A DNA stretch of 64,000 bases from contig CAVSWU010000003.1 of NCBI GenBank assembly GCA_963731795.1, forward strand, positions 1,222,216 to 1,286,215, written 5' to 3'. Shown here piece after piece: positions 17,683 to 35,209 of the stretch (the stretch's first letter is position 1; each line of letters starts with the position of its first letter). The notes beneath the pieces are model-generated. The model made no database searches. It was not told where the DNA came from and saw only the letters and a program-made list of their open reading frames with translations. The translations under genes and the position numbers were made by a program. This DNA comes from an uncultured delta proteobacterium. GTDB lineage: Bacteria; Myxococcota; Myxococcia; Myxococcales; Myxococcaceae.

Positions 17683-17755
17683 GTCCCCGTCGTCTAGAGG
17701 CCCAGGACGCTGGCCTTTCAAGCCGGTAACACGGGTTCGAATCCCGTCGGGGACA
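17683..17755 (+). tRNA. tRNA-Glu (anticodon TTC); its 3' 42 bp is the attachment site of the downstream island
   Basis: Acceptor GTCCCCG/CGGGGAC, anticodon loop CTTTCAA, T-arm ACGGGTTCGAATCCCGT. Confidence 0.85.
17714..17755 (+). repeat. attL: 42-bp direct repeat (3' end of tRNA-Glu)
   Basis: CCTTTCAAGCCGGTAACACGGGTTCGAATCCCGTCGGGGACA, identical to 35168-35209. Confidence 0.85.
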
Positions 17756-18079
17756 TAGAAGTTCTCAGGAGTTTCGAGAACTTAGGTGCGCACAGCCGTG
17801 CAGAGATGTGCGGCTGTGCGCACCGCGACGGCGCCAAGTTGGCGCCAAAAACCGGCGCTCTCTCCTCCCCCGTTACCGCGCGCCCCACCGCACGCTGCGG
17901 CCACACCCGACGCTTCGTAGATGGTTCCCAGCGCGCCGGTCAGCGCTCCGCAACAGGGCCCTCACCCATCCATATGCTCGTGAGTAGCCCAGGCTTAGAC
18001 CCGGCAGTGTCAGGCCAGAGGTATGCTTGGACCCTCAAATCGCCGAATAGGCGAGCATGGGCCTGGAGGGGCTTGCACT

Positions 18080-19363
18080 ATGGGCTTTCGCTTTAGCCGC
18101 AGGGTGAAACTGCTCCCCGGCATCCGCGTCAACATGGGGCTGCGAGGAGCATCCCTCAGCGTGGGAGGCCGCGGAGCAACCCTCAACCTTTCAAAACGCG
18201 GTGTACGTACGACCCTTGGAGTCCCCGGAACAGGGCTGTCGTGGACCAGCAGTTCCGCAAGCCGCAGTCACCAAACGCCTGCAGTTAGATCCGGAACGGC
18301 CAGGAGCACAGCGGCTGCGGAGCGGGCCCTTCGAGAGGCGGAGGCGCGAGCCTCCGTCGAAGCGGCAGAGTCGGAACGCGAGGCGCAAGTCAACGCATGG
18401 CGAGCCATGCCCGTCGTTCCTCCGGAGGCGGGCTACCTGCGCGCTACCCATGCAGAGCCATGGCCGCACGCTACTCCGACACGACCCGAGGAGGCACCTG
18501 CCCGTGCGGCCTTTCAAGTCGAATGCGAGCAGCGTGCGAAAATAAAGGAGACGGTATCCGTCCCGCGAGTCGTGATAGGGGTCCTGGCGCTTGCCGGCTC
18601 GCTCTCGCTCGGCATCAGCATGGGAAGTCTTTGCACAGGCATTACAGGATTCGTCATCGCGCTCGCGCTCCTAGTGCCTGAACTCAGCAAACTAGGCCGC
18701 CGACGTCCCTTGGCACAGACGTACTTCACCCAAGAGTGGCCCTTGCACTGGATGGAACTCCAGGCCAACTGGGCTGCATACGAGGCATGGCCCGAGCAAG
18801 AACGGGAGCGGGCGGCATTCGCCGCCAGACTGCTCCAAGGCGACCTCGCTGCCTTGACTGAGTCGCTGGAAGACTCCCTCGCCGACCTCGACTTCCCATT
18901 CGAGGCGTCATGCAGAATTGCGGTTCCCGAGCCACACGAAACCTTCGTGCTGCTCGACCTGCCTGAAATCGAGGACGCCATTTCGGAGGAGAAACTGCGC
19001 GCCCTGAAGTCGGGCGAGGTGAAGGAAGTACGCCGCACGCAAAAGGAGCGCCAAGCGGAGTACGCACGTCTAGCGACAGGCTTGGCGTTGTGGGTGGCAC
19101 GAACTGCCTTCGCTGCAGGGCCAACCCTCCAGCGCGTGCACGTAGCTGCCTATACGCAGCGTCGACGCACAGGTACGGGGGAACTCGTCGATGACTACGT
19201 GTATGAGGCGTGTTTTGAACGCGAGGTAGCCTCGCAATGGCGTCCGGACGAAGTTGACCCGATCGAGGTACTGCGCAGCGTGCCCAGCAGGATCGATCTA
19301 CGTGCAGATGGTCAGCTCAAAGCCATCCGAGCGCCAGAATGGGAGCACGTCGCGAGCGCGTAA
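18080..19363 (+). CDS. DUF4236 domain-containing membrane protein
   Basis: N-terminal MGFRFSRRVKLLPGIRVNMGLRGASLSVGGRGATLNLSKRG...LGVPGTGLSW matches DUF4236, followed by a hydrophobic segment. The ORF track starts at 18023. Confidence 0.55.
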   Translation: MGFRFSRRVKLLPGIRVNMGLRGASLSVGGRGATLNLSKRGVRTTLGVPGTGLSWTSSSASRSHQTPAVRSGTARSTAAAERALREAEARASVEAAESEREAQVNAWRAMPVVPPEAGYLRATHAEPWPHATPTRPEEAPARAAFQVECEQRAKIKETVSVPRVVIGVLALAGSLSLGISMGSLCTGITGFVIALALLVPELSKLGRRRPLAQTYFTQEWPLHWMELQANWAAYEAWPEQERERAAFAARLLQGDLAALTESLEDSLADLDFPFEASCRIAVPEPHETFVLLDLPEIEDAISEEKLRALKSGEVKEVRRTQKERQAEYARLATGLALWVARTAFAAGPTLQRVHVAAYTQRRRTGTGELVDDYVYEACFEREVASQWRPDEVDPIEVLRSVPSRIDLRADGQLKAIRAPEWEHVASA

Positions 19364-19450
19364 GACCGGCAGTCGGCTCGGCCTTGAACGCGCCGCCTCA
19401 CTTGTGCCCAATGGAGCGCGCCAGGACAGGGGCCCAGCAACCCCTGCCCT

Positions 19451-19966
19451 TCACTGCCCCGGGAGAAGAAAGGCGGCCAGGCGCACCAGTGCCTTGATCC
19501 TCGGACTGTCGAGGCGAGCGAGGAGGCGCAGCAGGCGCCGTTTCTCGGGCGTGTCGTTCAGGCCGGGCGGCACCGTGCCTGCCCCGGATGCCTCCTGCCA
19601 CGGAGCCACCGGAGAGAACCCCATCAGCTCATGGGGCCCGGATCCGAGAATCAGGCATAGGCGCAGCAGCGTGGAAACGCTCGGGAGCGCTCCCCCCCGC
19701 TCCATGCGCCCGTACACCTCGACGACGCTGCCGATACCTTCGGCAACTTCTGCCTGAGTCATGCCCGCGCGCTGGCGTGCCTGTTTCAACGCCGCTCCAA
19801 GGGTGGCCGGTAGCCTGTTCTGTCGGATCTCGACGTGCCGGGGCAGAGACGACCGCTTGCGGCGCGTCGTGGAGGGCCTGGAGCGTCCAGCGGCGGGAGT
19901 GTTCGCGGGGGTCTTCTCCATGTGGAACCTGCGGCTTTGCCCTGTCGGACGAGTTGAGGCCCCCAA
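19451..19966 (-). CDS. XRE-family helix-turn-helix transcriptional regulator
   Basis: LKQARQRAGMTQAEVAEGIGSVVEVYGRMERGGALPSVSTLLRLCLILG is a canonical HTH_XRE. The start may be the internal ATG at 19921. Confidence 0.6.
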   Translation of the reverse strand: MGASTRPTGQSRRFHMEKTPANTPAAGRSRPSTTRRKRSSLPRHVEIRQNRLPATLGAALKQARQRAGMTQAEVAEGIGSVVEVYGRMERGGALPSVSTLLRLCLILGSGPHELMGFSPVAPWQEASGAGTVPPGLNDTPEKRRLLRLLARLDSPRIKALVRLAAFLLPGQ

Positions 19967-20004
19967 GGGAGCCGGCGGCAGACGGTCACGGTCAGAGAGG
20001 GGGG

Positions 20005-21243
20005 CTAGTCGGTCCCGCCCGGCTCGGTGATGATGTCCTCTTCCGGCAGCATGGCAGGGGGCAACCCCTCCTCGTTGGTCGGCCCGAGAACGCGCCGACT
20101 CATGCTGGCCCCTGCCAGCGCGCTAAAGACCTCCTCGATCGCCTCCGCAGCTCCGTAGGGGGCGCCCAGCGAGGCGAGGCCCTCCCGTAGATCCGCCTCC
20201 AGGGCAGCCGCGGACGGATAGCGATCCTCCGGCTTCCGTTGGAGCAACTTGCGGATGATTGAGCGGAGCGGATGCGCGAGAGGTTCGGTGATCTCGTCCA
20301 CGTCGCGCGGGGTGAACGTGGCCGCCCGCAGGATGCAGTCGTCCGCGTGATCCGGTAGGTCCGCCTCCATGGCCGTGATGGCGGCGTCTAGAACCTTCCC
20401 CTTGACCTTCTCCGTTAGCGCCTCCTCCAAGTCGTCGGGCCGCACGTCGTCCATGCTGTAGAGGTGGTGCCACGTGGCCATTTCCAGCAGCACCAGCCCC
20501 AGCGAGAACAGATCCGAGCGCGGATCCGTCTCCTCGCCTAGCAGCGCTTCGGGCGAGCAATAGAACAAGTCCCCCTGAGGGCGCGGGAGCGTCGTTGCCA
20601 CCCGGCCCGGGAGCAGGGAGCGTGCGCGAGCAAAGTCCGTTAGGATGACCTCGCCCTCTGGCCTCAGGTAGATGCGGGCGGGGTTCACGTCCCGGTGAAC
20701 GATGCCCAGCGGGGCGCCGCTGTCGTCCTTGCAGGTGTGCGCGTAGTGCAGGGCACTGGCAACCTCTGCGCCTACGTACAGGCAGAGCGCGGGGGACATG
20801 GACGCTTGGCGCATGAGCGAGTAGCTGATCAGAGTATTGATCGACGTGCCCTCCACATTCTCGGACACGACATACAGAACGCCCTGGACCTCACAGCGCC
20901 CGATGATCCGGGCGATCCTCGGGTGTTGCAGGTAGGTGGCCAAGCGCGCCTCTTCACTGAGCCGCGCGCGCATCCTGACGAGTGCTTCCGGGTCGTTCGA
21001 CGTAGGCGGCAAGCTGCGGACGATGACTTGCCGCAGGCGCTTCTCTTTCGTGCGCTCCCAGGCAAGGACAGCCCTCTCCCCTACCCTCGATTCCGGCAAC
21101 TCCTCGACCATCCGATGCGACAGATCCACCTCATACGAGAGATCACCGAGAGAGAAGAGAATTACCCCCGGGACGTTGAAGGGTTGCCGAGACGTAGCCA
21201 TGTCGGATCGACTCCTCGCAGCGCGCACAGGGGCGCCGCGCAA
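20005..21243 (-). CDS. protein kinase-like protein with canonical C-lobe but unrecognisable N-lobe motifs
   Basis: HRDVNPARIYL, DFA, SPE and DLFSLG motifs are present. No Gly-rich loop or VAIK lysine could be found. Confidence 0.6.
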   Translation of the reverse strand: MRGAPVRAARSRSDMATSRQPFNVPGVILFSLGDLSYEVDLSHRMVEELPESRVGERAVLAWERTKEKRLRQVIVRSLPPTSNDPEALVRMRARLSEEARLATYLQHPRIARIIGRCEVQGVLYVVSENVEGTSINTLISYSLMRQASMSPALCLYVGAEVASALHYAHTCKDDSGAPLGIVHRDVNPARIYLRPEGEVILTDFARARSLLPGRVATTLPRPQGDLFYCSPEALLGEETDPRSDLFSLGLVLLEMATWHHLYSMDDVRPDDLEEALTEKVKGKVLDAAITAMEADLPDHADDCILRAATFTPRDVDEITEPLAHPLRSIIRKLLQRKPEDRYPSAAALEADLREGLASLGAPYGAAEAIEEVFSALAGASMSRRVLGPTNEEGLPPAMLPEEDIITEPGGTD

Positions 21244-21468
21244 TGGAGCGAAACACTACCCGGCATGTGCTAGCGGGATGAACGACGCCGGGGGTTGGGA
21301 GCGGCGCGACACTGCACTACAGCGTCAGCGGAACGCCCTAGCGGGCCAGCATGAGCGCAGCACGCCACACCGGCAGCAGCGCGGGATCCTCCGGGGGCTC
21401 CAGACTGATCGGGATCTTGATCATCTGAGGCACTCTTCACGTTTTCGGGAGTCTGCCTGAGAGAAGCC

Positions 21469-21903
21469 TTACCCGGCTAGGTTGCCCTCTATTAACTTCT
21501 TGAACTCATCAAACCCTATCGCTTTGCAGCTGACAGCGTATGCTTTCATCCTCTTGCCGCACCTTGTGTCTTCGGTCACCAGATAGTCTGCGGCGGCTTG
21601 AGCAGCGTCGGCGATAAGAGCGTCATTGAACTGCTTTGAGTTGCCACGATGAGCGACGTAGAGGCGCCCGGAACCAACCCGGTCTCCTACGCGACCGCCA
21701 GCCAACGCAACGCTCTCTCCAATGTGAGTCACTGGCAGCGACTTGGCCAAGTCTTCGTGCGGCGATTTCACGATCTCCGACCAAAGGGTCCGGGTGACGA
21801 GCACTGAGAGTGATGAGCGTGCGACGAGTTGACGGATGCGAACCGTAAGCGCTACGTCCGCCGCCAGTCTGTCGTAGATGTTACAGTCGAAGATGACTTT
21901 CAT
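21469..21903 (-). CDS. PIN-like domain protein (low-GC, probably horizontally acquired)
   Basis: MKVIFDCNIY N-terminus, E43, and a C-terminal LVTEDT pattern follow the PIN acidic-residue layout. This ~435-bp stretch is visibly lower in GC (~52%) than its neighbours. Confidence 0.45.
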   Translation of the reverse strand: MKVIFDCNIYDRLAADVALTVRIRQLVARSSLSVLVTRTLWSEIVKSPHEDLAKSLPVTHIGESVALAGGRVGDRVGSGRLYVAHRGNSKQFNDALIADAAQAAADYLVTEDTRCGKRMKAYAVSCKAIGFDEFKKLIEGNLAG

Positions 21904-22067
21904 CGTGCGAGTTACTCGAAAGGTACGAAGGGCTCAGAGCATGGGCAAAATTGAGAACTCATTGGAAGCAGCGGGATGGAACAAACCGGCCCCATACCGG
22001 TAGCCCCAGGGCTGGGCATCGCTGCGGATATCCAGCGGACGCGCTCCACGGGCACAGCAGGCCCGGC

Positions 22068-23963
22068 TCACCTCCACCGCTCCACCGCAACACCGGAGGC
22101 CACCTTCTTCCCCACAGCATGGCCGGGCTGGGAGCCCTCTTGCTTATCCATTCCCAGGACGCCCCCGCTCTTGAGCTCAACGCAGATCGGCACGGTGCGC
22201 CCGCCCGGAAGGTGAGCACGGAGATAGCGGCCATAGATGCGATCTCCCGTCGTCCACAGGTGCCCATCCAGCCGCGTCCCCGCTGGGGCCTTTCCTTCTG
22301 CCTCGATCAGCGCACCCGTGACAGGTCCATCCTTCCATACGGTCAACGGATCCTCGCGCGCCTCCTCTCGGGTTCCTTTGGTTACGTCAACGAGGATGAA
22401 GGGCTGTGACCCATGCCCAGGATAGGTGGACCACCCTAGCTCTTTCATCGCCCTAACGGCTTCCTCGGGGCAATCCTCGGGATCCGGGCGCGTCTGCACG
22501 CCGGGGCAGCCCGCTTGAAACCATGCGACGGAGGCCACGAGGAGCGCGCACCTCTCGGCTTTGGAGAGCACGCGCCGGGGACTGGCCTTCGGCGGGTTGG
22601 GTAGGCCGCTGGTGAGCGTTGGGGAGTTGTCGGGTTGTTTCACGGAAGGGCTCGCCTCCTCTTGGGTAGGGAGGGGTGAGGCTAACTGAGCGGGGCGGCT
22701 TGTCGGCTTTTCGGCCAGGGGGGTCGCGGGTCGGGGTTGATCCGCTGGGGCGCCTATGGCCACGGGGGGCGGCCCCGGGTGAGCTGGCCTGTACAGCACG
22801 AAGGCGGCGACGGCTGCCGCGAGCACTACCAGCGCCAGCGGCGCGGCCAGGGGCATACGGAGCCGCGCCGCTCGTGGACTGTGCACCGCTTCCCCCGGAG
22901 CTGCCAGCGGGGGCGGTGCCTCCGAGGGTATGGGCGGCATCTGTACGGCGGACGGGTGGACGGGGATCGGCACCTGCGGCGCCTCAACTGGCACGGGCAC
23001 CACTGCGGCGGGCTCTGGCGGGAGCTGCGCGGCGACCGGGTGAACGCGGGTGTTGCGCCACTCGGTGCCCTCGAGCTGCGCGAACTCATCCAGCGGGCCC
23101 CGTGCATCCCTCGCGGTCGCGTACCGGTCCTCGGGTTTGGGGCTGATCAGCTTCATCGCGTAGGCGCTCAACTCCTGCGGAACGCGTCCCTTGGTTGCAC
23201 TGAAGGGGGAAGGCGGCGCCATGACTTCGCTACCGAGCGGGGGCCTCTTCTGTCCTCGCGTCGGCATGGGGTCCGTCAACACGTCGTAGAGGTCCGCCCC
23301 GAGTGCGAAAATATCGTCCGTCGCTCGGAACGTGTAACGGGCCTCGGGGTTGAGCCGGTTCTCGTTCCAGAAGTGCACCGCCTCCGGGCTGCGGTTGCGC
23401 GGCGTGCCTGGGGGGAGCGGCCCATCCGTCAATTCCTCGGCTGAAGCGAAATCCGCCGCTCCAAAGTCGATGATCACCGGCTCGCCGCCCTTGGTGACCA
23501 TGATGTTCCGTAGGCTCAAGTCCCGATGGAACACGTCCCGCCCGTGCATGTGCTCCAGGGCATCAAAGAGCTTGAGGAACAGGACGACAACTTGATGCGG
23601 GGTCGGGTGGGTCTGCTCCACCCACCGCGCGAGCGTGTAGCCGTCCACGAAGTCTAGAACGATGTAGAGGAAGCCTGAGCGCGGATCCGGCCAACGGCCA
23701 TGCGCGAACATCCGGACAATGTGGGAGTGGTTGAGTTGCTGGAGGCAGGCCACCTCGCGCCGCGCGCGTGCGTCAACCTGCTTCGGGTCGTTGCTGCGCT
23801 CCGTCTGACAGGCCACCTTGAGCGCGAAGCGCTGGCCGTCCTTCTCCACCTCGTAAACGACGGCATACCCGCCGCTCCCGATGCGTCGGACGATGCGCCA
23901 GCCGTCCACCATCTGGCCGGGCGTGAGGTTCAACGGATCCACGTGAGCCAGCATGCCGCGCAC
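22068..23963 (-). CDS. eukaryotic-like Ser/Thr protein kinase with TM segment and C-terminal extracytoplasmic domain
   Basis: IGSGGYAVVY, ALKV, HRDLSLRNIMV, DFG. The linker is Pro-rich and a TM helix is PLALVVLAAAVAAFVL. Confidence 0.85.
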   Translation of the reverse strand: MRGMLAHVDPLNLTPGQMVDGWRIVRRIGSGGYAVVYEVEKDGQRFALKVACQTERSNDPKQVDARARREVACLQQLNHSHIVRMFAHGRWPDPRSGFLYIVLDFVDGYTLARWVEQTHPTPHQVVVLFLKLFDALEHMHGRDVFHRDLSLRNIMVTKGGEPVIIDFGAADFASAEELTDGPLPPGTPRNRSPEAVHFWNENRLNPEARYTFRATDDIFALGADLYDVLTDPMPTRGQKRPPLGSEVMAPPSPFSATKGRVPQELSAYAMKLISPKPEDRYATARDARGPLDEFAQLEGTEWRNTRVHPVAAQLPPEPAAVVPVPVEAPQVPIPVHPSAVQMPPIPSEAPPPLAAPGEAVHSPRAARLRMPLAAPLALVVLAAAVAAFVLYRPAHPGPPPVAIGAPADQPRPATPLAEKPTSRPAQLASPLPTQEEASPSVKQPDNSPTLTSGLPNPPKASPRRVLSKAERCALLVASVAWFQAGCPGVQTRPDPEDCPEEAVRAMKELGWSTYPGHGSQPFILVDVTKGTREEAREDPLTVWKDGPVTGALIEAEGKAPAGTRLDGHLWTTGDRIYGRYLRAHLPGGRTVPICVELKSGGVLGMDKQEGSQPGHAVGKKVASGVAVERWR

Positions 23964-23976
23964 CTCTCGCCTGTTA

Positions 23977-24891
23977 CTACAGCCGAACCTCGGGAACGGA
24001 CAGACAGCGGCTCCCGTCTGCGTTGCACACCCGTAGCGCGTGCAGCGCGCTCAACCATTCTCCCGGCTCCCTCGCGGGCATCTCCACCTCCACGGCCACG
24101 CTCACCGCGCCCCCTGGGGGGATGGTTGCTTGCCCAGAGAGCACCGCGCGAGCGCGGCGCGGCTCCCCTCCCGCTGCGGGTGTCACCTCGGCCCACGCGG
24201 GCGCCCATGGTTCCGCTCCGGTGTTGCTCACTTCGAGCACCACCACGCTCCACGTTGACGCCCCGAGTCCTCTGCACTCTACGGGGCGAAGTTCGCCGCG
24301 CACGGCCTCGCACGCCTCCCGGAAATCCTGAGCCGTCATCCCCTTGTCGTCCACCAGCCCCGCGAGCGCTACCGCTGCCGGGCTCACCGCTGGAGGCCGT
24401 GCCTTCAATTCCTCCAGTTCCTTGGCTTGTGCCTCGCACCGCTCGCGCGTGGCGGCCAGTTCCACGCGGCACGCCTCCACCGTCTGCGGCGGGCGGCTCA
24501 CGTTGACCACGGTATCCGCCTTGCCCGGCTCCCCTGTGAGCAGGAACACAACGCTAGAGGGGAACCCCTCGCGGTAGGAGAACCGGAGCGCCAGCCGTTC
24601 GCCGGGCCCGAGCGCCACGGACGGCGCGAGCGTGACGCCTGCATCACCCACCTCGAACACAGGGAAGCGGGCGCGGCCCTCCACCTGGACAGACTCCCGC
24701 AGGATCGGAGCGCCCAGCAGGATCACCGTAACGGTGCCAAGTGCCACGTAGATCACCGGAGACTCGCCAGCCTTCCCTGTGAGCACAACGGAGCGCCCAG
24801 CAGGCGCGGCCTGTGCCGTAGCGGCAAGGCCCACCAGCAGGGAGGCGAGCGCGAAAGGCGGGACGAAGGGTCGGAGCTGAATGGAGGGACC
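23977..24891 (-). CDS. secreted hypothetical protein, kinase-associated (TIGR02268-like Myxococcus paralogous family?)
   Basis: Signal-peptide-like LASLLVGLAATAQA begins the convincing part. It lies immediately upstream of the kinase on the same strand. No ATG/GTG start was found near the GGAGGT RBS. Confidence 0.4.
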   Translation of the reverse strand, partial: GPSIQLRPFVPPFALASLLVGLAATAQAAPAGRSVVLTGKAGESPVIYVALGTVTVILLGAPILRESVQVEGRARFPVFEVGDAGVTLAPSVALGPGERLALRFSYREGFPSSVVFLLTGEPGKADTVVNVSRPPQTVEACRVELAATRERCEAQAKELEELKARPPAVSPAAVALAGLVDDKGMTAQDFREACEAVRGELRPVECRGLGASTWSVVVLEVSNTGAEPWAPAWAEVTPAAGGEPRRARAVLSGQATIPPGGAVSVAVEVEMPAREPGEWLSALHALRVCNADGSRCLSVPEVRL

Positions 24892-25261
24892 TCCCAGGTA
24901 GGCCCACAGCCTAGCAGGTGATCGAGGGCGCCCGCGTCGAAGTGTGCCCCTGCCGGTTCTCGCAGCCGTTCCAGTGGGCGCCGCCCTGCCTCGACGCGGG
25001 AGCGCCCTACGGGCCGGGGCTCCCCCCGTCCGACACGCGAGCGCTCCACGGGCCCAGCGGGGGCGAGCCCCGCCGCGCGAGCGCTCCACCGGGCCGAGCT
25101 GGACGCGGCGACGATGGCCGCCGTCCTGGCGCGCGCCACTGGCCAGCGCTGGCGCTGTCGGACGCGCGCTCCTCCATCGGCTCTCGCTGTTGGGGCGTGC
25201 TGATATGCTCCAGCGGAGAACCGGAGCCTTGACCCGCAGCACCTCGCTTGATTGAAAGGAC

Positions 25262-26940: not shown

Positions 26941-27135
26941 AGGAGGCTGCTGCGCGTCTCCTAGCACACTCCACCGGGGCCGAGCTGGCGCTATCTGACG
27001 CGCGCGAGCGCTCCACGGGGCCAGCAGGCACGCATCGACGCGCGAGCTCTGCCATATGCGCCCCAGATCCGCCAGGAACCACGCGGGCGCCGGGGCTGAT
27101 TCGCGGGGGGCAGAACACGCCAAAATCACCCCGGT

Positions 27136-27699: not shown

Positions 27700-27941
27700 G
27701 TGACTCCCTTCCTAATCAGTGTACTGACAACACCTACACGCCGGGTTCACTGCCGCAGGACTGCGGATCTACGCTCCCGCAGCGGGTGGGACGCCGGAAG
27801 GACCCAAGCCTATGGGGGGGTGGAACCGTCACGGCTCGACGGCCTCGATCCGGCCACCTGCGAGGAAGGGGCGACGCTCATTTATCTGACCCCTTCCCGA
27901 TGGTGTGTTCTTCCGGGCCCTTCCCATTTCGCTTCCCACCC

Positions 27942-29144
27942 TTAGGGTGTGGGAAGCGCGGAAGGGGTGCTTCCGGCGCTTCCCGGGAAGCGTGGGAAGG
28001 GATGTGCCACCGTTGCCCGATCTTCATGATCATCCCCTCCAGTCTCCAGCTCCTTGCACGCTTGCAGCACGGCTTGAGTCCGGCGACTCAGACGGAGAGC
28101 TAACCCCGAGCCGCTGTCCGGTTTCTCCGCGAGCGCAGCCTGGATGTCCGCGCCGAGTTCCTCGGCTGCGGGCGCGGCCTTGGCCCTGACCTCGCGGCTG
28201 TACGTCCAGAGCGCCCACGTGGCCTCGCCGTTAGCGTCGTCCCTGATGTTCAAGGTGAGCTCGAACAGTCCCGCCGCACGCCCTGTCTTGGTCTCCACGA
28301 GCACAGAATCGGTCAAGGTGCTCTCCGTATGGGCCTTGAGCGCCATGTAGAAACCGCCGTCCACCGCGCCGTGGATGGCGGAGCTTCCGCGCATCATCTG
28401 GCCCGCGCGCCGTGAGGACTTGTCGGGGCTGCTCTTCGCGCTGTGGTGGACGAACAGCACAGTGCAATCCAAGAGGTCGCGGATCGCACGAAGCTGGGCC
28501 ATCACGTGCGCCATGGCGCCGCTGTCGTTCTCCTCGGCGCCGTGGATATCGCGCAGCGGGTCCAGCGCAACCAGCTTGGGCGCGCGCGGGAGCATCCGCA
28601 CAGCGGCGATGACGGCACACACGTCTGCGTCGTCCTGCAGGTCGATGTGCCCCCGGCACTGGATGTGGATGCGCCCTGTGGCCTTCTGAGGATCGAGCCC
28701 CTTGCCCACCGCGAGCGCCGCAAGCCGCGTGCGCATGGACTGTTCGCTGTCCTCGGCCATGAATAGGGCCACCTCTCCGGCCTCGCTCACCTGGAACTCG
28801 CCGAACGCCGGGACCGCATTTGCAACCGCCAGCGCTATCTCGATCTCCGCCCAAGTCTTGGCGGCCTTGGGTTCGGCTGAGATGGAGAAGACGCTCTTTT
28901 CCGGGATGATCCCGCTGATGGTCCACTGCATCGGTTTCGCAGGGCGCGAGAGGATGTCAGCGGCGCACTCGAACAGGACCTTGCGCTGGCCGCCAACGCT
29001 CCGGCCACGGTGCTGATCAAGCTCCAACCAAGCCCGGTGGAGCTGCCATTCGTAGGTCCCCGGCGCGGCGTCGGGGTCCGTGACGAAGTTGCTGCGGGCC
29101 TCTTTCACGGCGATGAGTTCCGCAACGCCCTCCGGCAGGCTCAA
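27942..29144 (-). CDS. RecA-like / AAA_25 family ATPase (RepA/primase-associated helicase-like)
   Basis: Walker A-like GIIPEKSVFSISAEPKAAKT and a Walker B-like acidic patch. TTG start. A TGA at 29211-29213 closes the upstream prim-pol frame, and no ATG/GTG lies between that stop and the ATPase's TTG start. Confidence 0.6.
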   Translation of the reverse strand: MSLPEGVAELIAVKEARSNFVTDPDAAPGTYEWQLHRAWLELDQHRGRSVGGQRKVLFECAADILSRPAKPMQWTISGIIPEKSVFSISAEPKAAKTWAEIEIALAVANAVPAFGEFQVSEAGEVALFMAEDSEQSMRTRLAALAVGKGLDPQKATGRIHIQCRGHIDLQDDADVCAVIAAVRMLPRAPKLVALDPLRDIHGAEENDSGAMAHVMAQLRAIRDLLDCTVLFVHHSAKSSPDKSSRRAGQMMRGSSAIHGAVDGGFYMALKAHTESTLTDSVLVETKTGRAAGLFELTLNIRDDANGEATWALWTYSREVRAKAAPAAEELGADIQAALAEKPDSGSGLALRLSRRTQAVLQACKELETGGDDHEDRATVAHPFPRFPGSAGSTPSALPTP

Positions 29145-29254
29145 GACCGGCTCCGGCGCAGTTTTCTCGCCTCGCGCCCGCCTATGCTGGATGCGATCTT
29201 GTCCACCTGCTCACTCGAAAGCGGCGGCTTGCACCGCGCCTCGTTGGTGACGTG

Positions 29255-29262
29255 GAGCAACT
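29255..29262. repeat. IS66 target-site duplication, left copy (GAGCAACT)
   Basis: Identical 8-mer at 31734-31741, directly abutting the imperfect terminal inverted repeats. Confidence 0.75.
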
Positions 29263-29340
29263 GTATCTGTTCGCCGTGCCCCGTCGTGACGAGGAGGCCG
29301 CCGCCGTGACACCACCAGGGCTCCACATGAGGAGGAGTCC

Positions 29341-29760
29341 ATGGAGAAGGAGTTGGAGCAGTTCCGGCAGGAGGTAGAGCGACTGAGGGCCGGGCGGCAG
29401 AAAGGCTCGTTGCCCTACCCGGAGACGCTGAGAGCGTTTGCGGTGCGCTACGTGGAGCATGCCCTGGAGGCGGGCGGGACGTTTGAGGCAGCAGCGACGG
29501 CGCTGGGGGTGTCGAAGCCGACGCTGCAAGCGTGGAGGAAGGGCAAGCCTGCGGCGCATCGTCGAGCCAAGGCGGGAGCAGAGGGGCGTGGGCTGGTGCC
29601 GGTGGTGGTGTCCGAGCCAAGGAAGCCGGGACGGCCGGCGATGGCGCAACCAGCCGTGGGGCAGGCAGGGCCCTTGACGGTGGTGGCCCCCGGGGGCTTT
29701 CGGGTGGAGGGGTTGAGCCTGGAGGGCGCAGCGCAGTTGCTGCGGAAACTGGGATGCTGA
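29341..29760 (+). CDS. tnpA: IS66 TnpA (orf1)
   Basis: 139 aa, first ORF of the IS66 unit with a helix-turn-helix region. Confidence 0.7.
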   Translation: MEKELEQFRQEVERLRAGRQKGSLPYPETLRAFAVRYVEHALEAGGTFEAAATALGVSKPTLQAWRKGKPAAHRRAKAGAEGRGLVPVVVSEPRKPGRPAMAQPAVGQAGPLTVVAPGGFRVEGLSLEGAAQLLRKLGC

Positions 29761-30134
29761 CGCTCACCCGAGCGGTGCGAGTGTTTGCCTATGCGGCGGC
29801 AGTGGACATGCGCAAGGGGTTCGATGGGCTGGGGGCCCTGGTGGAGCAGCAGCTGGGCGGGCAGTTGCTCAAGGGGGATGTGTTCCTGTTTGTGGGCCGA
29901 AGCCGCCGCCGCGCCAAGGTGCTGTACTTCGATGGGACGGGGCTGGTGTTGTTGACCAAGCGCTTGTTCCAAGGACGCTTCGCGCGGCCCTGGCCCGAGA
30001 AGGGCGCTGCCTCGGTGGAGTTGACGGTGGCCGAGCTGTCGCTGTTCCTGGAGGGCTGCGAGCTGGCGGGCCGCTGGAGGCTGTCGCCGCCTGCCTTCGA
30101 GGAAAAAACCCTTGCGGTAGGCTCTGCGTCCTAG
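29754..30134 (+). CDS. tnpB: IS66 TnpB (Orf2)
   Basis: VDMRKGFDGLGALV...GDVFLFVGRSRRRAKVLYFDGTGLVLLTKRL is the IS66 Orf2 signature. The ATG overlaps the tnpA stop. Confidence 0.8.
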   Translation: MLTLTRAVRVFAYAAAVDMRKGFDGLGALVEQQLGGQLLKGDVFLFVGRSRRRAKVLYFDGTGLVLLTKRLFQGRFARPWPEKGAASVELTVAELSLFLEGCELAGRWRLSPPAFEEKTLAVGSAS

Positions 30135-30149
30135 CACCTCTCAGGTAGG

Positions 30150-31667
30150 ATGGTGAAACTGGAGCAGGTGACAGACTTGGAGACGGCCAGGCAGGTGATA
30201 CGGCTGCTGGAGGCGGAGAATGAAAGGCTGCATCAGCGACTGCAGCACCTGGTGGCGGAGCTGGCCCGGCTCAAGGGGCAGGACGCCTCGGCGCAGTTGC
30301 AGCGCGAGCTGACAAAGCTCCAAGAGCAGCTGGCCTTACTCCAGCAGCGCCAGTTTGGCCCCTCCAGCGAGAAGCGCCCGCTGGCCTCACCGGTGGAGCG
30401 GCCACAGCGCACCCAGCCGCCTCAGGGCCACGGTCCCCGCGCCCAGCCAGAGCTGCCCGTACAAGAGGTGCTGCTGCCGTTGGATGAGGCCGACCAGGTG
30501 TGTGCCCTGTGCGGCGCTACGCTGCATGAGTGGGACGGGCAGACGGAGGACAGCGAAGAAATCACCGTCGTGGAGCGCCAGTTCGTGCTGCGCAAGGTGC
30601 GGCGCCAGAAGTACCGCTGCCCCCAGGGCTGTGCGCCGGTGACGGCGCCTGCACCCCCGCGCCTGGTAGAGGGCGGCCGCTACTCGGTGGAGTTCGCGGT
30701 GCACGTAGCCTTGCAGAAGTACGCCTACCACCTGCCGCTGGCCCGCCAGGAGCGCATGTTCCGGCGTGAGGGCCTGGTAGTCGAGCGCCAGACGCTCTGG
30801 GATCAGCTGGAGGCATTGGCCGACCACCTGCGCCCCAGCTACGAGGCGCTGCCCTCGGAGGCTTTCACCTCGCCGCTCATTCACGCCGATGAGACGCACT
30901 GGTACCTGTTGGACAAGGGGCCGGCCAAGAAGTGGTACGCGTGGACGGTGGCCTCGCCCGACACGGTGTACCACCGAATCCTGCCCAGCCGCTCGGGAGC
31001 CACGGCCAAAACCGTGCTTGGAGACTACGCGGGCGTCGTCGTGGTGGATGGGTATGCGGCCTACCAGACGGCGACGAAGTCCGGCGCGGACGGGCCCGCC
31101 CCTGCCACGCTGGCCTTCTGTTGGGCGCACGTGCGGCGCAAGTTCGTGGAGGCGCTCAAGTTCGAGCCGGCCTGCCAGCAGGTGGTGGAGCTCATCGGCC
31201 AGCTGTACGCCATCGAGGAGGACCTGCCTGACTGGCACGCGTTGGAAGGACAGGCGCAACAGGACGCGCTGGCCCATCGGCTCACCGTGCGACAGCAGCA
31301 GTCGGCCCCCCTCGTCGAGCGCATCAAGGCGTGGGCGCTTTCTCAGAAGGCGCTGCCCGACAGCACCTTTCGCAAGGCCCTCGAGTACATGCTGGAGCTG
31401 TGGAACGGGCTGACGCTCTTCCTGCACAACCCCCGGGTGCCGTTGGATAACAACCACGTCGAGCGACAACTGCGAGACATGGTGCTGGGCCGCAAGAACC
31501 ACTACGGCAGCAAGTCCCAGCGAGGCACCGAGGTGGCTGCTCTCTTCTACTCGCTCATCGAGACGGCCAAACTGCGTGGTGAGGATCCGGGCGACTACCT
31601 GCTGCGCGCAGCCCTCGCCGCCATCGAGAAGCCGGGCACCGTCACACTTCCCTCAGGCGTCGACTGA
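30150..31667 (+). CDS. tnpC: IS66-family transposase TnpC
   Basis: 505 aa with a leucine zipper, a CxxC zinc finger, DETHWYLL, and HYGSKSQRG...LIETAKLRGEDP. Confidence 0.9.
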   Translation: MVKLEQVTDLETARQVIRLLEAENERLHQRLQHLVAELARLKGQDASAQLQRELTKLQEQLALLQQRQFGPSSEKRPLASPVERPQRTQPPQGHGPRAQPELPVQEVLLPLDEADQVCALCGATLHEWDGQTEDSEEITVVERQFVLRKVRRQKYRCPQGCAPVTAPAPPRLVEGGRYSVEFAVHVALQKYAYHLPLARQERMFRREGLVVERQTLWDQLEALADHLRPSYEALPSEAFTSPLIHADETHWYLLDKGPAKKWYAWTVASPDTVYHRILPSRSGATAKTVLGDYAGVVVVDGYAAYQTATKSGADGPAPATLAFCWAHVRRKFVEALKFEPACQQVVELIGQLYAIEEDLPDWHALEGQAQQDALAHRLTVRQQQSAPLVERIKAWALSQKALPDSTFRKALEYMLELWNGLTLFLHNPRVPLDNNHVERQLRDMVLGRKNHYGSKSQRGTEVAALFYSLIETAKLRGEDPGDYLLRAALAAIEKPGTVTLPSGVD

Positions 31668-31733
31668 CAGCTGCTCGCCCTGCGAGCAGCCCTGTGTGAT
31701 CCCAGGGCCCCACGGGGTACGGCGAACTGATAC

Positions 31734-31741
31734 GAGCAACT
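31734..31741. repeat. IS66 target-site duplication, right copy (GAGCAACT)
   Basis: See 29255-29262. Confidence 0.75.
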
Positions 31742-32490
31742 GGTACGCGAGCATAGGGTCCAGTTTCCGGAAGAGCACCCCGGCGATTTCGGTCATCCCC
31801 ACGTCGCGCCGGCCCTCGCCGAGGTTCGCCAGGAGCGCGGCCCACTCGCCGCCAGATCGCCGCAGCGGCTTCACAGCGGGCGCGGCCGGTTCGGAATCGG
31901 GAATCTGGACACCCCGCCAGCGCTTCGTCCACGTCGAGCGGAGGGCCGTCCTGGGCCAGCACGGGAGCCACAGGTAGTCCGGCCGGGATGGACCGGGCGA
32001 ACCACAGGCGCGCGCAGTCCGCCGCGTCCGGGTCCGCTGGGATGGCGAACCGATTGACGAGCACGGATCGGAGGGGCCCCCACTCGCGCGGCTGCACTTC
32101 CCGGGAGGGCCGCACCACCAGCCGCACAGAGCGCCGGGCGGAGCGATCCGAGTGCGTAGGGACGATCGCGCTCGCGATCCTGGCCGCCTCGAGACGCCGC
32201 ATGCATGCGACGAGCACCGGCCTCTCGACGCAGTCCACGTCGAACACGAGGACCTGGAGCCCGACGACGTCCTCGTTCCGGCGCCGGCCCCCGGTCCTGA
32301 AGCGTGCGCCAGACCAGCCGGGGCCGAGTCGCGACGGGCATCCATGTCCGATGCAGGAGGTGCCGCAGTCCGCGAACCGGGGGCGGCCGATCCGGCGGAC
32401 GAACGCATCCCAGGTCAGGCGTGCAGGCTTCGGGATCGTGTCGTTCACCGCGCTGAAGAACGCGACCTCGATGAACTCGTTTGTCTGAGT
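31742..32490 (-). CDS. primase-polymerase (prim-pol/AEP-like) domain protein; its last ~15 codons are displaced by the IS66 insertion
   Basis: MATQTNEF...VVGLQVLVFDVDCVERP is a DxD acidic motif. Removing the IS and one TSD rejoins the frame, which then runs to a TGA at 29211-29213. Confidence 0.45.
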
Positions 32491-32498
32491 CGCCATGT

Positions 32499-32849
32499 TC
32501 ACGCTGGCTCCGTGCTCTGGACTCGGGAATTGGAGCGGGCGGGCGGACGGGGCCGCCGCTTCTTCCACTCCGAGCGTTGCCGTTCGGCCAGCTCGGCCAG
32601 CTCCGCTTTGAACGACTTGGGCGCGCGGCGCTTCGCCGTGGGCCGCTGCTCGGGCTGCCGCGTGTGGCACTCCGCCGCGAGCGCGGCAGCGACGGACTCT
32701 GCGGTGATCACGGTCTTTCGGCCGTACTTCGGCCCCCGGACAAGCGTGTTGTCGGCGAGCAGTTCGAACACCCGGCGCCGCTTGCAATGGAGCTCGGCGG
32801 CTGCCTCATCGACGGTCAGCAGCGCGCTCACGGCTGCCCCCGGTCGCAC
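32499..32849 (-). CDS. excisionase/AlpA-like helix-turn-helix DNA-binding protein
   Basis: LLTVDEAAAELHCKRRRVFELLADNTLV is an HTH_17/Xis-like motif. Confidence 0.5.
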   Translation of the reverse strand: MRPGAAVSALLTVDEAAAELHCKRRRVFELLADNTLVRGPKYGRKTVITAESVAAALAAECHTRQPEQRPTAKRRAPKSFKAELAELAERQRSEWKKRRPRPPARSNSRVQSTEPA

Positions 32850-33034
32850 TCGGGAATCGGCTGGCGAGCACGCTCAAGGAGCAGTCGCTCCACAAGATCC
32901 GGGTCGAAAAGGAACCGGTCGCCCGCACGAACACACGGCAGGCGCCCCGCTGCGGCCTCAGCCCGCAGCCATACGACGGAGACGCGCAACCTGCGCGCCA
33001 TCGCAGAATCGGGAATGGGTTTCGGCGTCGTCAT
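32828..33034 (-). CDS. excisionase/AlpA-like helix-turn-helix DNA-binding protein
   Basis: MARRLRVSVVWLRAEAAAGRLPCVRAGDRFLFDPDLVERLL is an Xis/AlpA-type HTH; 68 aa. Confidence 0.5.
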   Translation of the reverse strand: MTTPKPIPDSAMARRLRVSVVWLRAEAAAGRLPCVRAGDRFLFDPDLVERLLLERARQPIPECDRGQP

Positions 33035-33093
33035 TGGCCCAATTTTCGGGCCGACTTCGGACGCGTCGGATCAAGTTGGGATCTAGTTCGGAT

Positions 33094-33825
33094 CTACTTG
33101 GGCTCGTTCGCAAGCCTCGTTCCACGCGAGGTGACAGCGTACCCTTTCTTCGGCCCGCCTGGACGGTGAACGAGGCCGGCCTCAGAGAGTTCAGCCAGCG
33201 CCTTGCCCACCGTGCCGCGTGAGAACCCGTCCGGGTTGTTCTCCTCGATATCTCTCTGGCCCTGCCGGGCTCCGCCTACGCACGTAGCAAGGTACTTCAG
33301 GATCTTGAATGCGTTCTTGCTCAACTGTGGAGCGCCCTCAACCTCGTCGGCCCTTTCGGGTGGTGGGACTTCCTTCACAAGCGCGAGGTCGCTCTCAGCT
33401 TCTGCAGCGAGTTGCTCAATGACCCGCCGTACTTCGACCACGTCCTGCGGAGGCGCCCACTCCCAGACCGCCGGCAGCCCTAGAACGTGGGACTCGCGCG
33501 CAAGGGGCAGGAAGTCGCGCAGCCATTGCCTGAAGTGAGGGAAGTCCTCGATGGATTCCTTTCCACTGCGGACGCGCTCCTCTATCGCGATGAGGCCGGG
33601 AAGTGAGCGCCTTGCGTTCTGCCGAAGGCAATAGAGGCGCTCTTGAAGCGACGTCCCGGTTGGCCTGCTCGCATAGAGCCACGGCACGTCCTTCGAAATA
33701 TACGAGCCGTCATCGAGGGAAGCCGCGCCTGCTTTGACTGCGGCGGCTAGCTTCTGCGCCAGTACCTCTCGGCGTTTGCCTTCGACCCATGCTTTATGCT
33801 CAGCCTTCTTGCGGTCGATGCTCAC
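33094..33825 (-). CDS. hypothetical protein with C-terminal winged-helix DNA-binding domain
   Basis: C-terminal FKILKYLATC...GTVGKALAELSEAGLVHRPGG is a wHTH. It lies between the integrase and the Xis genes. Confidence 0.4.
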   Translation of the reverse strand: MSIDRKKAEHKAWVEGKRREVLAQKLAAAVKAGAASLDDGSYISKDVPWLYASRPTGTSLQERLYCLRQNARRSLPGLIAIEERVRSGKESIEDFPHFRQWLRDFLPLARESHVLGLPAVWEWAPPQDVVEVRRVIEQLAAEAESDLALVKEVPPPERADEVEGAPQLSKNAFKILKYLATCVGGARQGQRDIEENNPDGFSRGTVGKALAELSEAGLVHRPGGPKKGYAVTSRGTRLANEPK

Positions 33826-35087
33826 TTGTCACCCCTCGTCCGCGCCGGGAACTTCGGATCGTCCATGTGGGCGAGGCACAGTGGAAGCGCAATCATGGGG
33901 GGCACTTCGTTCCCCTCGTAGAAGACTTTCGTCGTACGCGCGCTCGTGTGGCCCATGACCGCCGCGACTTCGTCGAGCGGCACGCCGCCGTCGCTCGGAC
34001 GAACAAGCTTCCCCATGCCGCGCGCCCAGGTGGCGAAGCTGTGCCGAAGTTCGGAGGGCCGGATAATGGGAGGTCGCGCCGTGCATTCGTCAGCCTTCGC
34101 GAAGTCTGCGCCGCAGGTGCAGGCATCCCCCGCTAGCCGCCTATGCGCGCGCTTGAGCATGAGCAGCGCCGGGGCACGCGTCAGAGGAGAACCACGGGCC
34201 GCGAGCCGTCTTGCCGCTGCGAGGCCGGCAGCGTCGAGGCTCACGACGTGGATCTTCCCGGCCTTCAGGTGGCGGAAGGTGATGGTGCCCGCGATGCCGC
34301 AGGGGTCGTTCACCTCGCGGATCTCGGCGTCGCCGTCCGCAACCCTGGCGATCTCGGTATCGTGCATACCAGTGGTCGCGCGCAGGCGGATCACGTCGCG
34401 CAGGGCCTGGCTCGTCAGCGCCGCATACGTGTGCTCGACGTCCGCAATGGCGTATCCCTTCGCACGCACGCTCTTCTCTGCTCGCGGCTGCGGCACGGGA
34501 AGATCGAGCGTAGGATCGTCCTTCCGCTCGAGCTTGCCCGTCTTCCGCGCCCACGCGGTGAACGCCCGGAGGGCAACGATCCGCTTGTGGCGTGCCCTCC
34601 TCCAGTTCCCCAGAATGGCGTTCAGATCTCCGAGCGTGACCTTGCACAGTTCCTTCCCGCCCAGTGCTTCGGCCCATGCCTTGAGGTACGGCTGTAGGGT
34701 GTGCCGGACGTAGCCCTCGGAGAGTTCCCCCTGTTCCACCTTGGCGCGCGCGTCCGAGGAGAACTCCGCGAGCGTCGCCGCGTCGAGTCGCAGGCCGGCG
34801 GGCGCGCGAGCCTGCTCCTGGTTCTGCTGCTTCCTCGTCCGGTACGCGAGCGGGTCACGGTCGAATAGGGCGAGTTCAGCGAGCGCCTCCCGTTCGGTAC
34901 GCACGCCGAGAGCGATCTTGTAGCGCCTGCCTCCGGCCCACTTCTCGATCACGAAGACCTCGCGCCCCCGCGCGAGCCGGACGAGTCCGCCGTCCCAGCG
35001 ACGAAGCGAGCGTTGCGAGGGGTACTGAGGTGGCTCCGCAGGGGGCGCCGTGGGCGCATCAGAGGAAGCCAGTTGGACGGTGGGCAT
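33822..35087 (-). CDS. int: tyrosine-type site-specific integrase
   Basis: C-terminal catalytic region SELRHSFATWA...GHTSARTTKVFYEG (R..H..R..Y). Adjacent to attR. Confidence 0.9.
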   Translation of the reverse strand: MPTVQLASSDAPTAPPAEPPQYPSQRSLRRWDGGLVRLARGREVFVIEKWAGGRRYKIALGVRTEREALAELALFDRDPLAYRTRKQQNQEQARAPAGLRLDAATLAEFSSDARAKVEQGELSEGYVRHTLQPYLKAWAEALGGKELCKVTLGDLNAILGNWRRARHKRIVALRAFTAWARKTGKLERKDDPTLDLPVPQPRAEKSVRAKGYAIADVEHTYAALTSQALRDVIRLRATTGMHDTEIARVADGDAEIREVNDPCGIAGTITFRHLKAGKIHVVSLDAAGLAAARRLAARGSPLTRAPALLMLKRAHRRLAGDACTCGADFAKADECTARPPIIRPSELRHSFATWARGMGKLVRPSDGGVPLDEVAAVMGHTSARTTKVFYEGNEVPPMIALPLCLAHMDDPKFPARTRGDK

Positions 35088-35167
35088 GGGCGCCTCTCAA
35101 GAGGAACGGCGCCAAGTCGGCGCCAAGTGCCACCATACACCGCCCGTCTCCCTCTGGGAAACACTCC

Positions 35168-35209
35168 CCTTTCAAGCCGGTAACACGGGTTCGAATCCCG
35201 TCGGGGACA
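35168..35209 (+). repeat. attR: 42-bp direct repeat of tRNA-Glu 3' end
   Basis: Identical to 17714-17755. Confidence 0.85.

Follow-up and report, generated by a model that had tools for sequence, protein, structure and literature searches.

The window analysed here is a stretch of 64,000 nucleotides from an uncultured member of the Myxococcaceae (GenBank assembly GCA_963731795.1, contig CAVSWU010000003.1, positions 1,222,216 to 1,286,215), and positions 17714-35209 of it form a site-specific integrative element at the 3' end of a tRNA-Glu(UUC) gene. We describe this element together with the family of Myxococcota islands to which it belongs, and weigh whether such islands are satellites of phages. 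The intact tRNA-Glu(UUC) gene (17683-17755, plus strand) and its upstream partner in the tRNA operon, tRNA-Lys(UUU) (17605-17677, plus strand), were identified by ARAGORN and Rfam, and Rfam found only these two tRNAs in the window. The last 42 bp of the tRNA-Glu gene form attL (17714-17755, plus strand), which supplies the 3' part of the gene, and recur as a displaced copy, attR (35168-35209, plus strand). This 42-mer, CCTTTCAAGCCGGTAACACGGGTTCGAATCCCGTCGGGGACA, has exactly two copies in the window, on the same strand and with 0 mismatches, where shuffled sequences are expected to hold 0. No further copy was found in the window at up to 3 mismatches, nor was a third, degenerate att copy detected there in a local-alignment sweep with the whole tRNA. 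The repeat had been placed at 35168-35209 in a preliminary description made from the sequence alone, and this proved correct to the base. Alignment of 300 bp around each copy showed that identity is restricted to the 42 bp and ends at both edges, which excludes the repeat being part of a longer duplication.

The element measures 17,496 bp with both repeats, 17,454 bp when the repeat is counted once, and 14,975 bp without an IS66 insertion sequence that it has received. The window has a GC content of about 68%, and core genes have a GC content at third codon positions (GC3) above 0.85; the interval at 17.7-40.7 kb is clearly lower in GC3. The native terminator hairpin of the tRNA operon, with a 20-pair stem and a T-rich tail, is located beyond attR (35215-35258, plus strand) and is conserved in a related metagenome locus, L003. 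The element integrated at the 3' end of tRNA-Glu(UUC) via its own tyrosine integrase, and the insertion regenerated the tRNA at attL and displaced the 42-bp copy and the native terminator to attR. Directly after tRNA-Glu, at 17756-17800, are attL-proximal hairpins of the element, GTTCTC...GAGAAC and GGTGCGCACAGCCG...CGGCTGTGCGCACC, which may replace the displaced terminator. The same 42 bp adjoin the integrase gene in four related loci (L002, L003, L004 and L008). An empty attB was not found by a look-up of the flanking genes, which gave only short contigs, or by genome-collection and metagenome scans; the single genome-collection scan returned one distant helicase relative and the metagenome scan three short loci. 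The view that this is a discrete tRNA-Glu-integrated element with its own integrase, bounded by attL and attR and distinct from a prophage, was supported.

The gene adjoining attR encodes an apparently intact tyrosine integrase of 421 amino acids (33822-35087, minus strand). Its identity, noted in the preliminary description, was confirmed by phrog_1 (9.6e-16); the Pfam match is weak (9.6e-5), and its alignment covers profile positions 58-166 only. An integrase of the same length and 97% identity (P0093) leads to the metagenome loci L003, L004, L008 and L009 of the Joint Genome Institute (JGI). At 40-57% identity, the integrase family extends through Myxococcus, Corallococcus, Pyxidicoccus, Archangium and Cystobacter (Myxococcaceae and Archangiaceae) and includes M. 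xanthus, M. fulvus and M. stipitatus, and the window integrase was without a match among sequenced phages. The motifs LRHSF (R348, H349) and GH (H380) and the residue Y390, all assigned by eye, are conserved in 11 members of the family. The Box-I-like motif, also read by eye, is TGMH(D/G)TEI with a near-invariant His, whereas canonical tyrosine recombinases have TGxRxxE with the first catalytic Arg; this His may be the reason for the weak Pfam score.

Two small genes that had been described as encoding Xis/AlpA-like helix-turn-helix (HTH) proteins follow the integrase region. One encodes a 116-residue protein (32499-32849, minus strand) matching HTH_17 at 8.7e-5, below the Pfam cutoff, and the excisionase family phrog_1840 at 2.7e-4. 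The other is a 68-residue excisionase- or regulator-like open reading frame (32828-33034, minus strand) matching phrog_66 at 1.4e-4, and an equivalent 68-residue gene was called in L004. Both genes were thus recovered, and their assignment as Xis- or AlpA-like is best kept tentative. Between them and the integrase lies a gene for a 243-residue protein with a C-terminal winged HTH and weak HTH matches (33094-33825, minus strand), a candidate master regulator; a 242-residue homologue with about 92% DNA identity occupies the same position in L003, L004 and L008.

The replication module had been read as a prim-pol gene followed by a gene for a RecA-like AAA_25 ATPase. The ATPase gene was confirmed (27942-29144, minus strand; AAA_25, 1.9e-29), and it also matches PHROG primase/helicase families; its product is a RepA/DnaB-like replicative helicase. 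The primase gene is split by an IS66-family insertion sequence of 2,471 bp (29263-31733, plus strand) that had gone unreported, and it also carries a 1-bp frameshift. Its 3' fragment (29141-29262, minus strand) holds the end of the PriCT_1 domain and is colinear with the homologues P0150 and P0151; its 5' part (31742-32496, minus strand) contains an extra G at about 31918, which was recognised from a switch in GC3 phase and from the alignment with the related contig L013. The insertion sequence encodes tnpA (29341-29760), tnpB (about 29757-30134; TnpB_IS66, 2.3e-27) and tnpC (30150-31667; DDE_Tnp_IS66, 7.5e-77), has 22-nt terminal inverted repeats of 91% identity (29263-29284 and 31712-31733), and is flanked by a perfect 8-bp target duplication, GAGCAACT, at 29255-29262 and 31734-31741. 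It has the same three open reading frames (tnpA, tnpB and a DDE tnpC), inverted repeats and 8-bp duplication as the rest of the IS66 family, with nothing unusual, and it invaded the island secondarily. Records of the identical TnpC protein exist for both the 4.25-Mb contig and a second one of 4.79 Mb, and if both contigs belong to one assembly, this IS66 is multi-copy in a genome of about 9 Mb.

In silico removal of IS66 and one copy of the duplication rejoined the PriCT_1 domain, and the GC3 phase still changed frame near 31.9-32.0 kb. The intact homologues P0150 (297 residues, 90% identical) and P0151 (298 residues, 61%) are colinear across both the insertion site and the frameshift, and the window gene has about 97-98% DNA identity to the intact gene of L013 over most of its length, with one extra G at about 31918. 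As the cause of the frameshift, a 7-bp tandem duplication at 31893-31905 was considered and rejected, since the homologues show a single extra G. The IS66 lesion in the primase gene is certain. The 1-bp insertion, located within a run of G/C, may be an error of the assembly. The replication gene of this copy is therefore inactivated by IS66, possibly also by the frameshift, and autonomous replication of this copy probably fails.

For the name prim-pol, only the primase part was supported: the PriCT_1 domain is present and a PHROG 'replicative helicase-primase' match was obtained at 3.9e-6. The window primase gave no PF09250 (Prim-Pol) match, an hhalign comparison with the PF09250 domains of sister elements reached a probability of 0.2% with only the DxD motif aligned, and a PDB sequence search with the primase returned nothing meaningful. 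A separate JGI protein of 261 residues (P0153) was observed to be an intragenic mosaic, with an N-terminal PF09250 Prim-Pol domain and a C-terminal PriCT_1 tail in which about 47 residues are identical to the C-terminus of the window primase.

Next to the helicase gene is a gene for a small terminase (terS) of the Nu1/DUF1441 type (27136-27699, minus strand; 187 residues). The earlier impression of a terminase-small-subunit-like protein was borne out by phrog_57 ('terminase small subunit', 1.4e-21) and, through homologues, by PF07278. The window protein itself had no Pfam match in the scan; all of its homologues carry a precomputed PF07278/DUF1441 assignment, and JGI names several of them 'terminase Nu1 subunit'. 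An IMG/VR scan with the terS alignment gave 196 relatives, and gene context was counted in 80 fetched loci. A GpA-type large terminase gene (terL) was located directly downstream of the terS family member in every one of the 80, and a portal gene was present in 66; island-type helicase, integrase, DUF2381 or kinase genes were present in 0 of the 80. One further context is that of P0113, a 57%-identical homologue that is the first gene of L011 (JGI 3300068074, contig Ga0613806_000432; 47,709 bp, 68% GC), a contig that starts 85 bp upstream of terS. It continues with a GpA-type terL, a lambda-type portal, a fused capsid-protease (phrog_4523, 5e-182), head-completion genes and a tail sheath. L011 is a candidate for the helper type, and L014 and several other IMG/VR loci are similar.

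When the terL, portal, capsid and sheath of L011 were used as tblastn queries, nothing was found in the window, L004, L008 or L010. Together with the Pfam and PHROG scans, this confirmed that capsid and tail genes are absent from the element, as had been noted, and added that lysis, terL and portal genes are absent too. terS is an orphan only in these islands. Against sequenced phages, the window TerS gave weak matches only, with no myxophage among them, and the L011-type terL is without a close cultured relative, all being below 47% identity.

Further from the integrase, a group of genes was found to recur across related islands. It comprises a DUF2381 gene (23977-24880, minus strand; about 300 residues; DUF2381, 6.3e-47 over residues 205-488), a gene for a Ser/Thr kinase of 631 residues (22068-23963, minus strand; Pkinase, 5.4e-30; 83% DNA identity to L010 and 74% amino-acid identity to L094), a gene for a Ser/Thr-kinase-like protein of 412 residues (20005-21243, minus strand; Pkinase, 1.1e-24; 80% DNA identity to L010) and a gene for an HTH_3 (Cro/C1-type) regulator (19451-19966, minus strand; Pfam, 4.2e-11; DNA identity 91% to L008 and 80-87% to L010). 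The long DUF2381 reading frame reaching to 25452 is probably over-extended; the homologues in L008, L010 and L094 have 289-300 residues. The kinases, the DUF4236 gene and the DUF6310/DUF5953 pair had all been listed as cargo, and all are present with Pfam matches. The comparison of these sequences shows that DUF2381, the two kinases and HTH_3 form a conserved backbone of the element family rather than free cargo.

Variable genes were located at other positions. By the same comparison there are two cargo slots, one between terS and DUF2381 and the other separating the kinase genes, and their fillings include DUF6310/DUF5953 in the window, FHA and Pol-beta nucleotidyltransferase genes ahead of DUF2381 in L094, and AAA_21/DUF4435 in L010. 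The inter-kinase slot of the window holds a gene of 144 codons (21469-21903, minus strand), is empty in L008 and contains a different gene in L010. This gene had been called low-GC and PIN-like; the low GC holds (0.594 in 21001-22000), and the PIN match is below the Pfam cutoff (8.2e-3). At the attL-proximal end is a variable cargo gene for a DUF4236 protein (18023-19363, plus strand, with its true start probably at about 18080; Pfam, 6.6e-17; phrog_38135, 4.9e-34), which is absent from L008. Both kinases matched the PD-T4-6 single-kinase defence models of PADLOC (1e-38 to 3e-43), and membership of PD-T4-6 was not accepted, since the matches are limited to the generic kinase domain. By eye, the 631-residue kinase has a hydrophobic segment and a C-terminal extension, and the catalytic loops are atypical: HRDLSLRN in this protein, which recalls the HRDLAARN of Tyr kinases, and HRDVNPAR in the 412-residue protein, which is possibly a pseudokinase. 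The literature searched held one incidental mention of DUF2381.

To describe the family, we compared the window with related islands. The locus L008, from a sister genome, carries an element of 12,265 bp in its own tRNA-Glu with the same perfect 42-bp repeats, and shares synteny with the window on the side of the tRNA (GreA, a 312-residue gene, PhoH). Its gene order is integrase, 242-residue protein, HTH_17, Prim-Pol (172 residues), AAA_25 (482 residues), terS, DUF2381, kinase, kinase, and it lacks both IS66 and DUF6310/DUF5953. DNA identity between the two elements is 92% in the integrase, regulator and Xis block, 89% in terS and 91% in HTH_3; the kinase block is about 63-69% identical, and the replication modules are not alignable. 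In Hyalangium gracile (L010, GCA_020103725), the order was found with a P4-type integrase, a fused Prim-Pol/helicase of 823 residues, a TerS of 65% protein identity and the same downstream module, between 26-nt tRNA-like direct repeats 15.5 kb apart; DNA identity to the window is 83% in the DUF2381-kinase block and 80% in the kinase-HTH_3 block. A metagenome-assembled genome (L094, GCA_034680565) has the same order with a third integrase type, a Prim-Pol/D5 helicase and a TerS of 86% identity. On the 6.5-kb contig L013, a P4-type integrase accompanies the window-type primase (90% identical). In M. fulvus (L002), a 57%-identical integrase and the same 42 bp are followed by a DUF6310/DUF5953 pair, and L095 has a related integrase at a different site.

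Family members thus have three integrase types and at least three replication modules, with TerS of 65-89% protein identity. Across the window, L008/L004, L010 and L094, the family order is integrase, regulator and excisionase-like HTH, primase and helicase, orphan terS, a repeat region with a cargo slot, DUF2381, kinase, a second slot, second kinase and HTH_3, and integrases and replication modules have been swapped among its members. At this tRNA-Glu site, only islands were seen (the window, L008 and an older remnant), in what is a tiny sample.

The slot between terS and DUF2381 carries a gene for a DUF6310 lipoprotein, a candidate toxin (25262-26185, plus strand; DUF6310, 5.9e-58; lipobox LLSAC), and a gene for a DUF5953 protein, its candidate immunity partner (26173-26940, plus strand; DUF5953, 5.2e-117), whose start overlaps the end of the DUF6310 gene. 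The pair lies in a 1.7-kb cassette that L008 and L010 lack at the corresponding position, between terS and DUF2381, and is a later insertion into the slot. A second cassette outside the element (38894-40588) has 87.5% DNA identity to 25224-26933 in inverted orientation; the two DUF6310 paralogues are 91% identical and differ mostly in the last 60 or so residues. Both have the lipobox LLSAC-ATMDPS, with no Lys at +2 and no Ala at +7, which is the outer-membrane rule of the SitA toxins (PMC5562445). The cassette most resembles a lipoprotein toxin-immunity cassette of the SitA/SitI type, to which it is analogous in lying on myxobacterial mobile DNA, in its lipobox and in having the putative immunity gene directly downstream of the putative lipoprotein toxin gene; outside Mx-alpha, sitA loci usually have mobile elements next to them (PMC5562445). 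It differs from SitA/SitI in that DUF6310 has an internal hydrophobic segment and the element has no sitB, and Mx-alpha is about 100 kb of prophage-like DNA, compared with an island of 12-17 kb here. The C-terminal domain of DUF6310 shows, by eye only, a D...E-x-K-like pattern (D...E-I-K). DUF6310 and DUF5953 had no PADLOC or PHROG matches, and nothing was found on either in the literature searched.

Iterated repeats flank the cassette. A motif of about 24 nt, CGACGCGCGAGCGCTCCACGGGCC, occurs in three copies about 40 bp apart at 24991-25095, and two more copies are located on the terS side of the cassette, at 26998-27052; three matches to the motif were obtained against an expectation of 0.06. 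Four to five repeats of 20-25 nt are also present in the terS-DUF2381 spacer of L010 (10640-10909). The cassette appears to have landed inside the iterated array and split it, and the array is suggested as a candidate TerS-binding (cosB-like) site or an origin.

Based on these comparisons, we consider it fairly probable that this Myxococcota island family represents phage satellites resembling phage-inducible chromosomal islands (PICIs), of which the window holds a copy with an inactivated primase. The architecture, with its orphan Nu1-type terS, points to phage-mediated satellite transfer. The trigger for excision and replication of the island would be a helper phage whose packaging machine is of the GpA/Nu1 type (lambda-like, cos); the island TerS would bind island DNA, possibly at the iterated repeats, and recruit the large terminase of the helper, so that the island, of about 12-15 kb, would be packaged into particles made by the helper. 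A packaging-specificity subunit without a motor, in a compact island that integrates and replicates, is a hallmark of terS-bearing PICIs (PMC6092414, PMC10085698). Three of the five PICI components of SatelliteFinder were found (integrase, primase-replicase and terS), a regulator, which would make four, was weakly supported, and the forbidden genes (tail, holin, portal and terL) were absent from PHROG and Pfam scans and from tblastn. The sizes, 14,975 bp for the window element without its insertion sequence, 12.3 kb for L008 and 15.5 kb for L010, fit the 12-15-kb range of PICIs and are about one third of the length of L011.

As in SaPIs (Staphylococcus aureus pathogenicity islands), EcCICFT073 and PmCI172, the att site is specific, the order runs from integrase through a putative regulator or AlpA-like gene, primase-replicase and terS to accessory genes, structural and lysis genes are lacking, the length is 12-15 kb, and accessory or defence-like cargo follows terS (PMC6092414, PMC10085698). 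The islands differ from these in their Myxococcota host, in a Nu1/DUF1441-type terS that is tied to GpA terminases in phages, in the conserved backbone module of DUF2381, two kinases and HTH_3, and in their three interchangeable integrase types. More than 99.9% of the PICIs in the SatelliteFinder paper were in Proteobacteria or Firmicutes, and its main text is without mention of myxobacteria (PMC10085698).

Other integrating elements share some of these features. P4-like satellites have tRNA-type integration, an AlpA-like HTH protein, a primase/helicase, a length of about 10-15 kb and cargo hotspots, and L010 and L013 carry P4-type integrases with Arm-DNA-bind_3; the window integrase is not of the P4 type, and PHROG and Pfam scans of all element open reading frames gave no homologues of Psu, Sid or Delta and no matches to the P4 alpha primase or epsilon. 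On these scans the element is not P4-like. To our knowledge, P4 has a cos site and no terS. The generic class of tRNA islands of the Islander type has a tyrosine integrase, the 3' end of a tRNA gene as target, a regenerated tRNA with a displaced fragment and tandem accretion, all as here, and leaves the orphan terS and the conserved architecture unexplained (PMC4383910).

Several observations weigh against the satellite interpretation. Neither a helper phage nor an excised circle or a packaged form was seen, and the junction of att to the left end had no match in viral contigs. A gene for capsid morphogenesis or size redirection was not recognised in the Pfam and PHROG scans of the element; this component is also missing in many accepted PICIs, designated 'Type B' (PMC10085698). 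The excisionase- and AlpA-like matches all fall below curated thresholds, and for the fold of the primase N-terminus the AlphaFold model of intact P0150 was unusable (pLDDT 43). The TerS model is confident (pLDDT 82), yet Foldseek gave no PDB match and only two unnamed viral proteins, and a PDB profile search gave nothing. The iterated repeats are downstream of terS, whereas the lambda cosB lies before Nu1, and the role proposed for them is a guess. The kinase/DUF2381 module is without a counterpart in known satellites. Finally, the end of L013 (6404-6496) is taken up by the initial 31 codons of a capsid-protease-like gene that neither terS nor terL precedes, and some relatives of the replication module may therefore belong to capsid-encoding elements or prophages.

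The preliminary description had favoured an integrative, possibly mobilisable island. Such an island would excise by Int and Xis and move by conjugative mobilisation or transformation, and the TerS-like protein would be a DNA-binding accessory protein or regulator. The integrase, the Xis-like genes, the att sites and a replication module are all present, and helper dependence is unproven, all of which would suit this explanation. In the conjugative sense, however, the suggestion of mobilisability did not hold up: the Pfam and PHROG scans detected no relaxase, coupling protein, secretion or other conjugation gene, and neither an oriT-associated gene nor an FtsK/Tra-type translocase was detected. 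The terS family is otherwise strictly a packaging gene, adjoining terL in 80/80 viral loci, and terS is the most conserved non-integrase gene among members in which everything else was swapped. We regard a plain island as unlikely on these grounds. Still less likely is a decayed prophage from which terL and the head, tail and lysis genes have disappeared. The 57% identity of terS to that of a complete phage-like contig is in keeping with it, as are the decay elsewhere at the locus (IS66, an ISL3 fragment and an integrase fragment) and the presence in L013 of this primase type together with the beginning of a capsid-protease-like gene. The same compact order of 12-15.5 kb without a structural remnant, however, recurs in at least four independent elements with different genera, integrases and att sites, random decay would not converge on one architecture, and tblastn found no fragments of terL, portal or capsid.

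The matches of the kinases to PD-T4-6 models (1e-38 to 3e-43) and the two variable slots with toxin-like or defence-like genes also raise the possibility of a defence or competition island. Its TerS would act as a decoy against Nu1/GpA phages and its kinases and toxin pair in abortive infection or kin competition, without phage-mediated transfer of its own. Those matches cover the generic kinase domain only, and the dedicated replication module argues for a life cycle after excision. Interference with a helper and self-transfer normally coexist in satellites (PMC6092414), so defence would be more a sub-function than an alternative, and as a full explanation we give it a small probability. Returning to the satellite interpretation, a more far-reaching form of it, possible though rather doubtful, is that the islands are undescribed, Myxococcota-specific satellites of Nu1/GpA (cos) myxophages. 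The DUF2381-kinase-HTH_3 module would then be a helper-sensing or abortive-infection device, and the slots would ferry toxin/immunity cassettes of the outer-membrane-exchange type, linking phage parasitism to kin discrimination.

The island is unremarkable as a tRNA-gene insertion. It is a genuine island at tRNA-Glu, stacked on the remnant of an older one, and IS66 has knocked out its replication gene. Of more interest is the reading at the level of the family, which combines an orphan Nu1-type terS with a conserved kinase module; the evidence is computational only. No paper linking Myxococcota with PICIs was found in the literature searched, and if the islands are satellites they would, as far as that literature shows, be the first described in this phylum. 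They would point to uncultured Nu1/GpA-type phages as helpers. Satellite backbones do not usually contain a kinase module, and this one could bring to light a novel mechanism by which phages are sensed or blocked; a lipoprotein toxin/immunity pair in a cargo slot suggests a route for the spread of kin-discrimination loci. The occurrence of the integrase family in M. xanthus, M. fulvus, M. stipitatus, Corallococcus, Archangium and Cystobacter makes these ideas testable in tractable strains.

The perfect repeats had been taken as a sign of recent integration. This does not follow, because one copy is a tRNA gene under selection and the diverged sister variant in L008 carries the same perfect repeats (42/42). 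In the comparison of the window with L008, identity is 67-94% in the 200 bp next to each att copy, and both cores are 42/42; if the core had diverged by 8.4%, as the neighbouring integrase block has, the chance of finding all 42 bases unchanged would be about 0.025. Cores that are unchanged amid diverged flanks indicate that the core is constrained, or regenerated by excision and reintegration, and is not a clock. The chromosomal flanks of the window and L008 are 83-91% identical, a divergence similar to that of the modules shared by the two elements, which is compatible with long residence and module exchange or with repeated replacement. Excision is plausible because the integrase, the Xis-like genes and both att copies are intact, and this copy is probably still able to excise. 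With the primase dead, a complete satellite cycle is unlikely without complementation.

Directly beyond attR (35210-40600), the remains of an older, decayed island were found, which the preliminary description had missed. A C-terminal fragment of 112 residues from a different tyrosine integrase (35239-35577, minus strand; Phage_integrase, 5e-15, profile positions 98-169 only) has 94% DNA identity to the same fragment in L003/L008, and the displaced terminator hairpin overlaps the 3' end of its gene. The remnant continues at 35578-40600 with genes for proteins of 94, 266 and 281 residues, an ISL3 transposase fragment (36814-37713) and the second DUF5953/DUF6310 pair (DUF5953 at 38890-39645 and DUF6310 at 39642-40544, both on the minus strand). 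Its GC3 is below that of the core genes (TPM, LemA), which resume at 40717, and no distal att of this older island is left in the window. In L003, which alone retains the distal repeat, a 26-bp partial att and the same hairpin recur about 5.5 kb further out. Between the two att/hairpin copies lie the integrase fragment and, on the side of the partial att, genes for a DUF8303 protein and a reverse transcriptase. Such a repeat pair, of about 85 bp per copy, marks an older island. The older remnant and the newer element together indicate that the tRNA-Glu site was hit at least twice, and the 17.45-kb element is the newer, tRNA-proximal insertion. The reverse transcriptase in the older remnant of the sister genome has 652 residues (RVT_1) and is encoded, with the DUF8303 gene, at 5440-7398 of L003, which corresponds to 619-2577 of L008.

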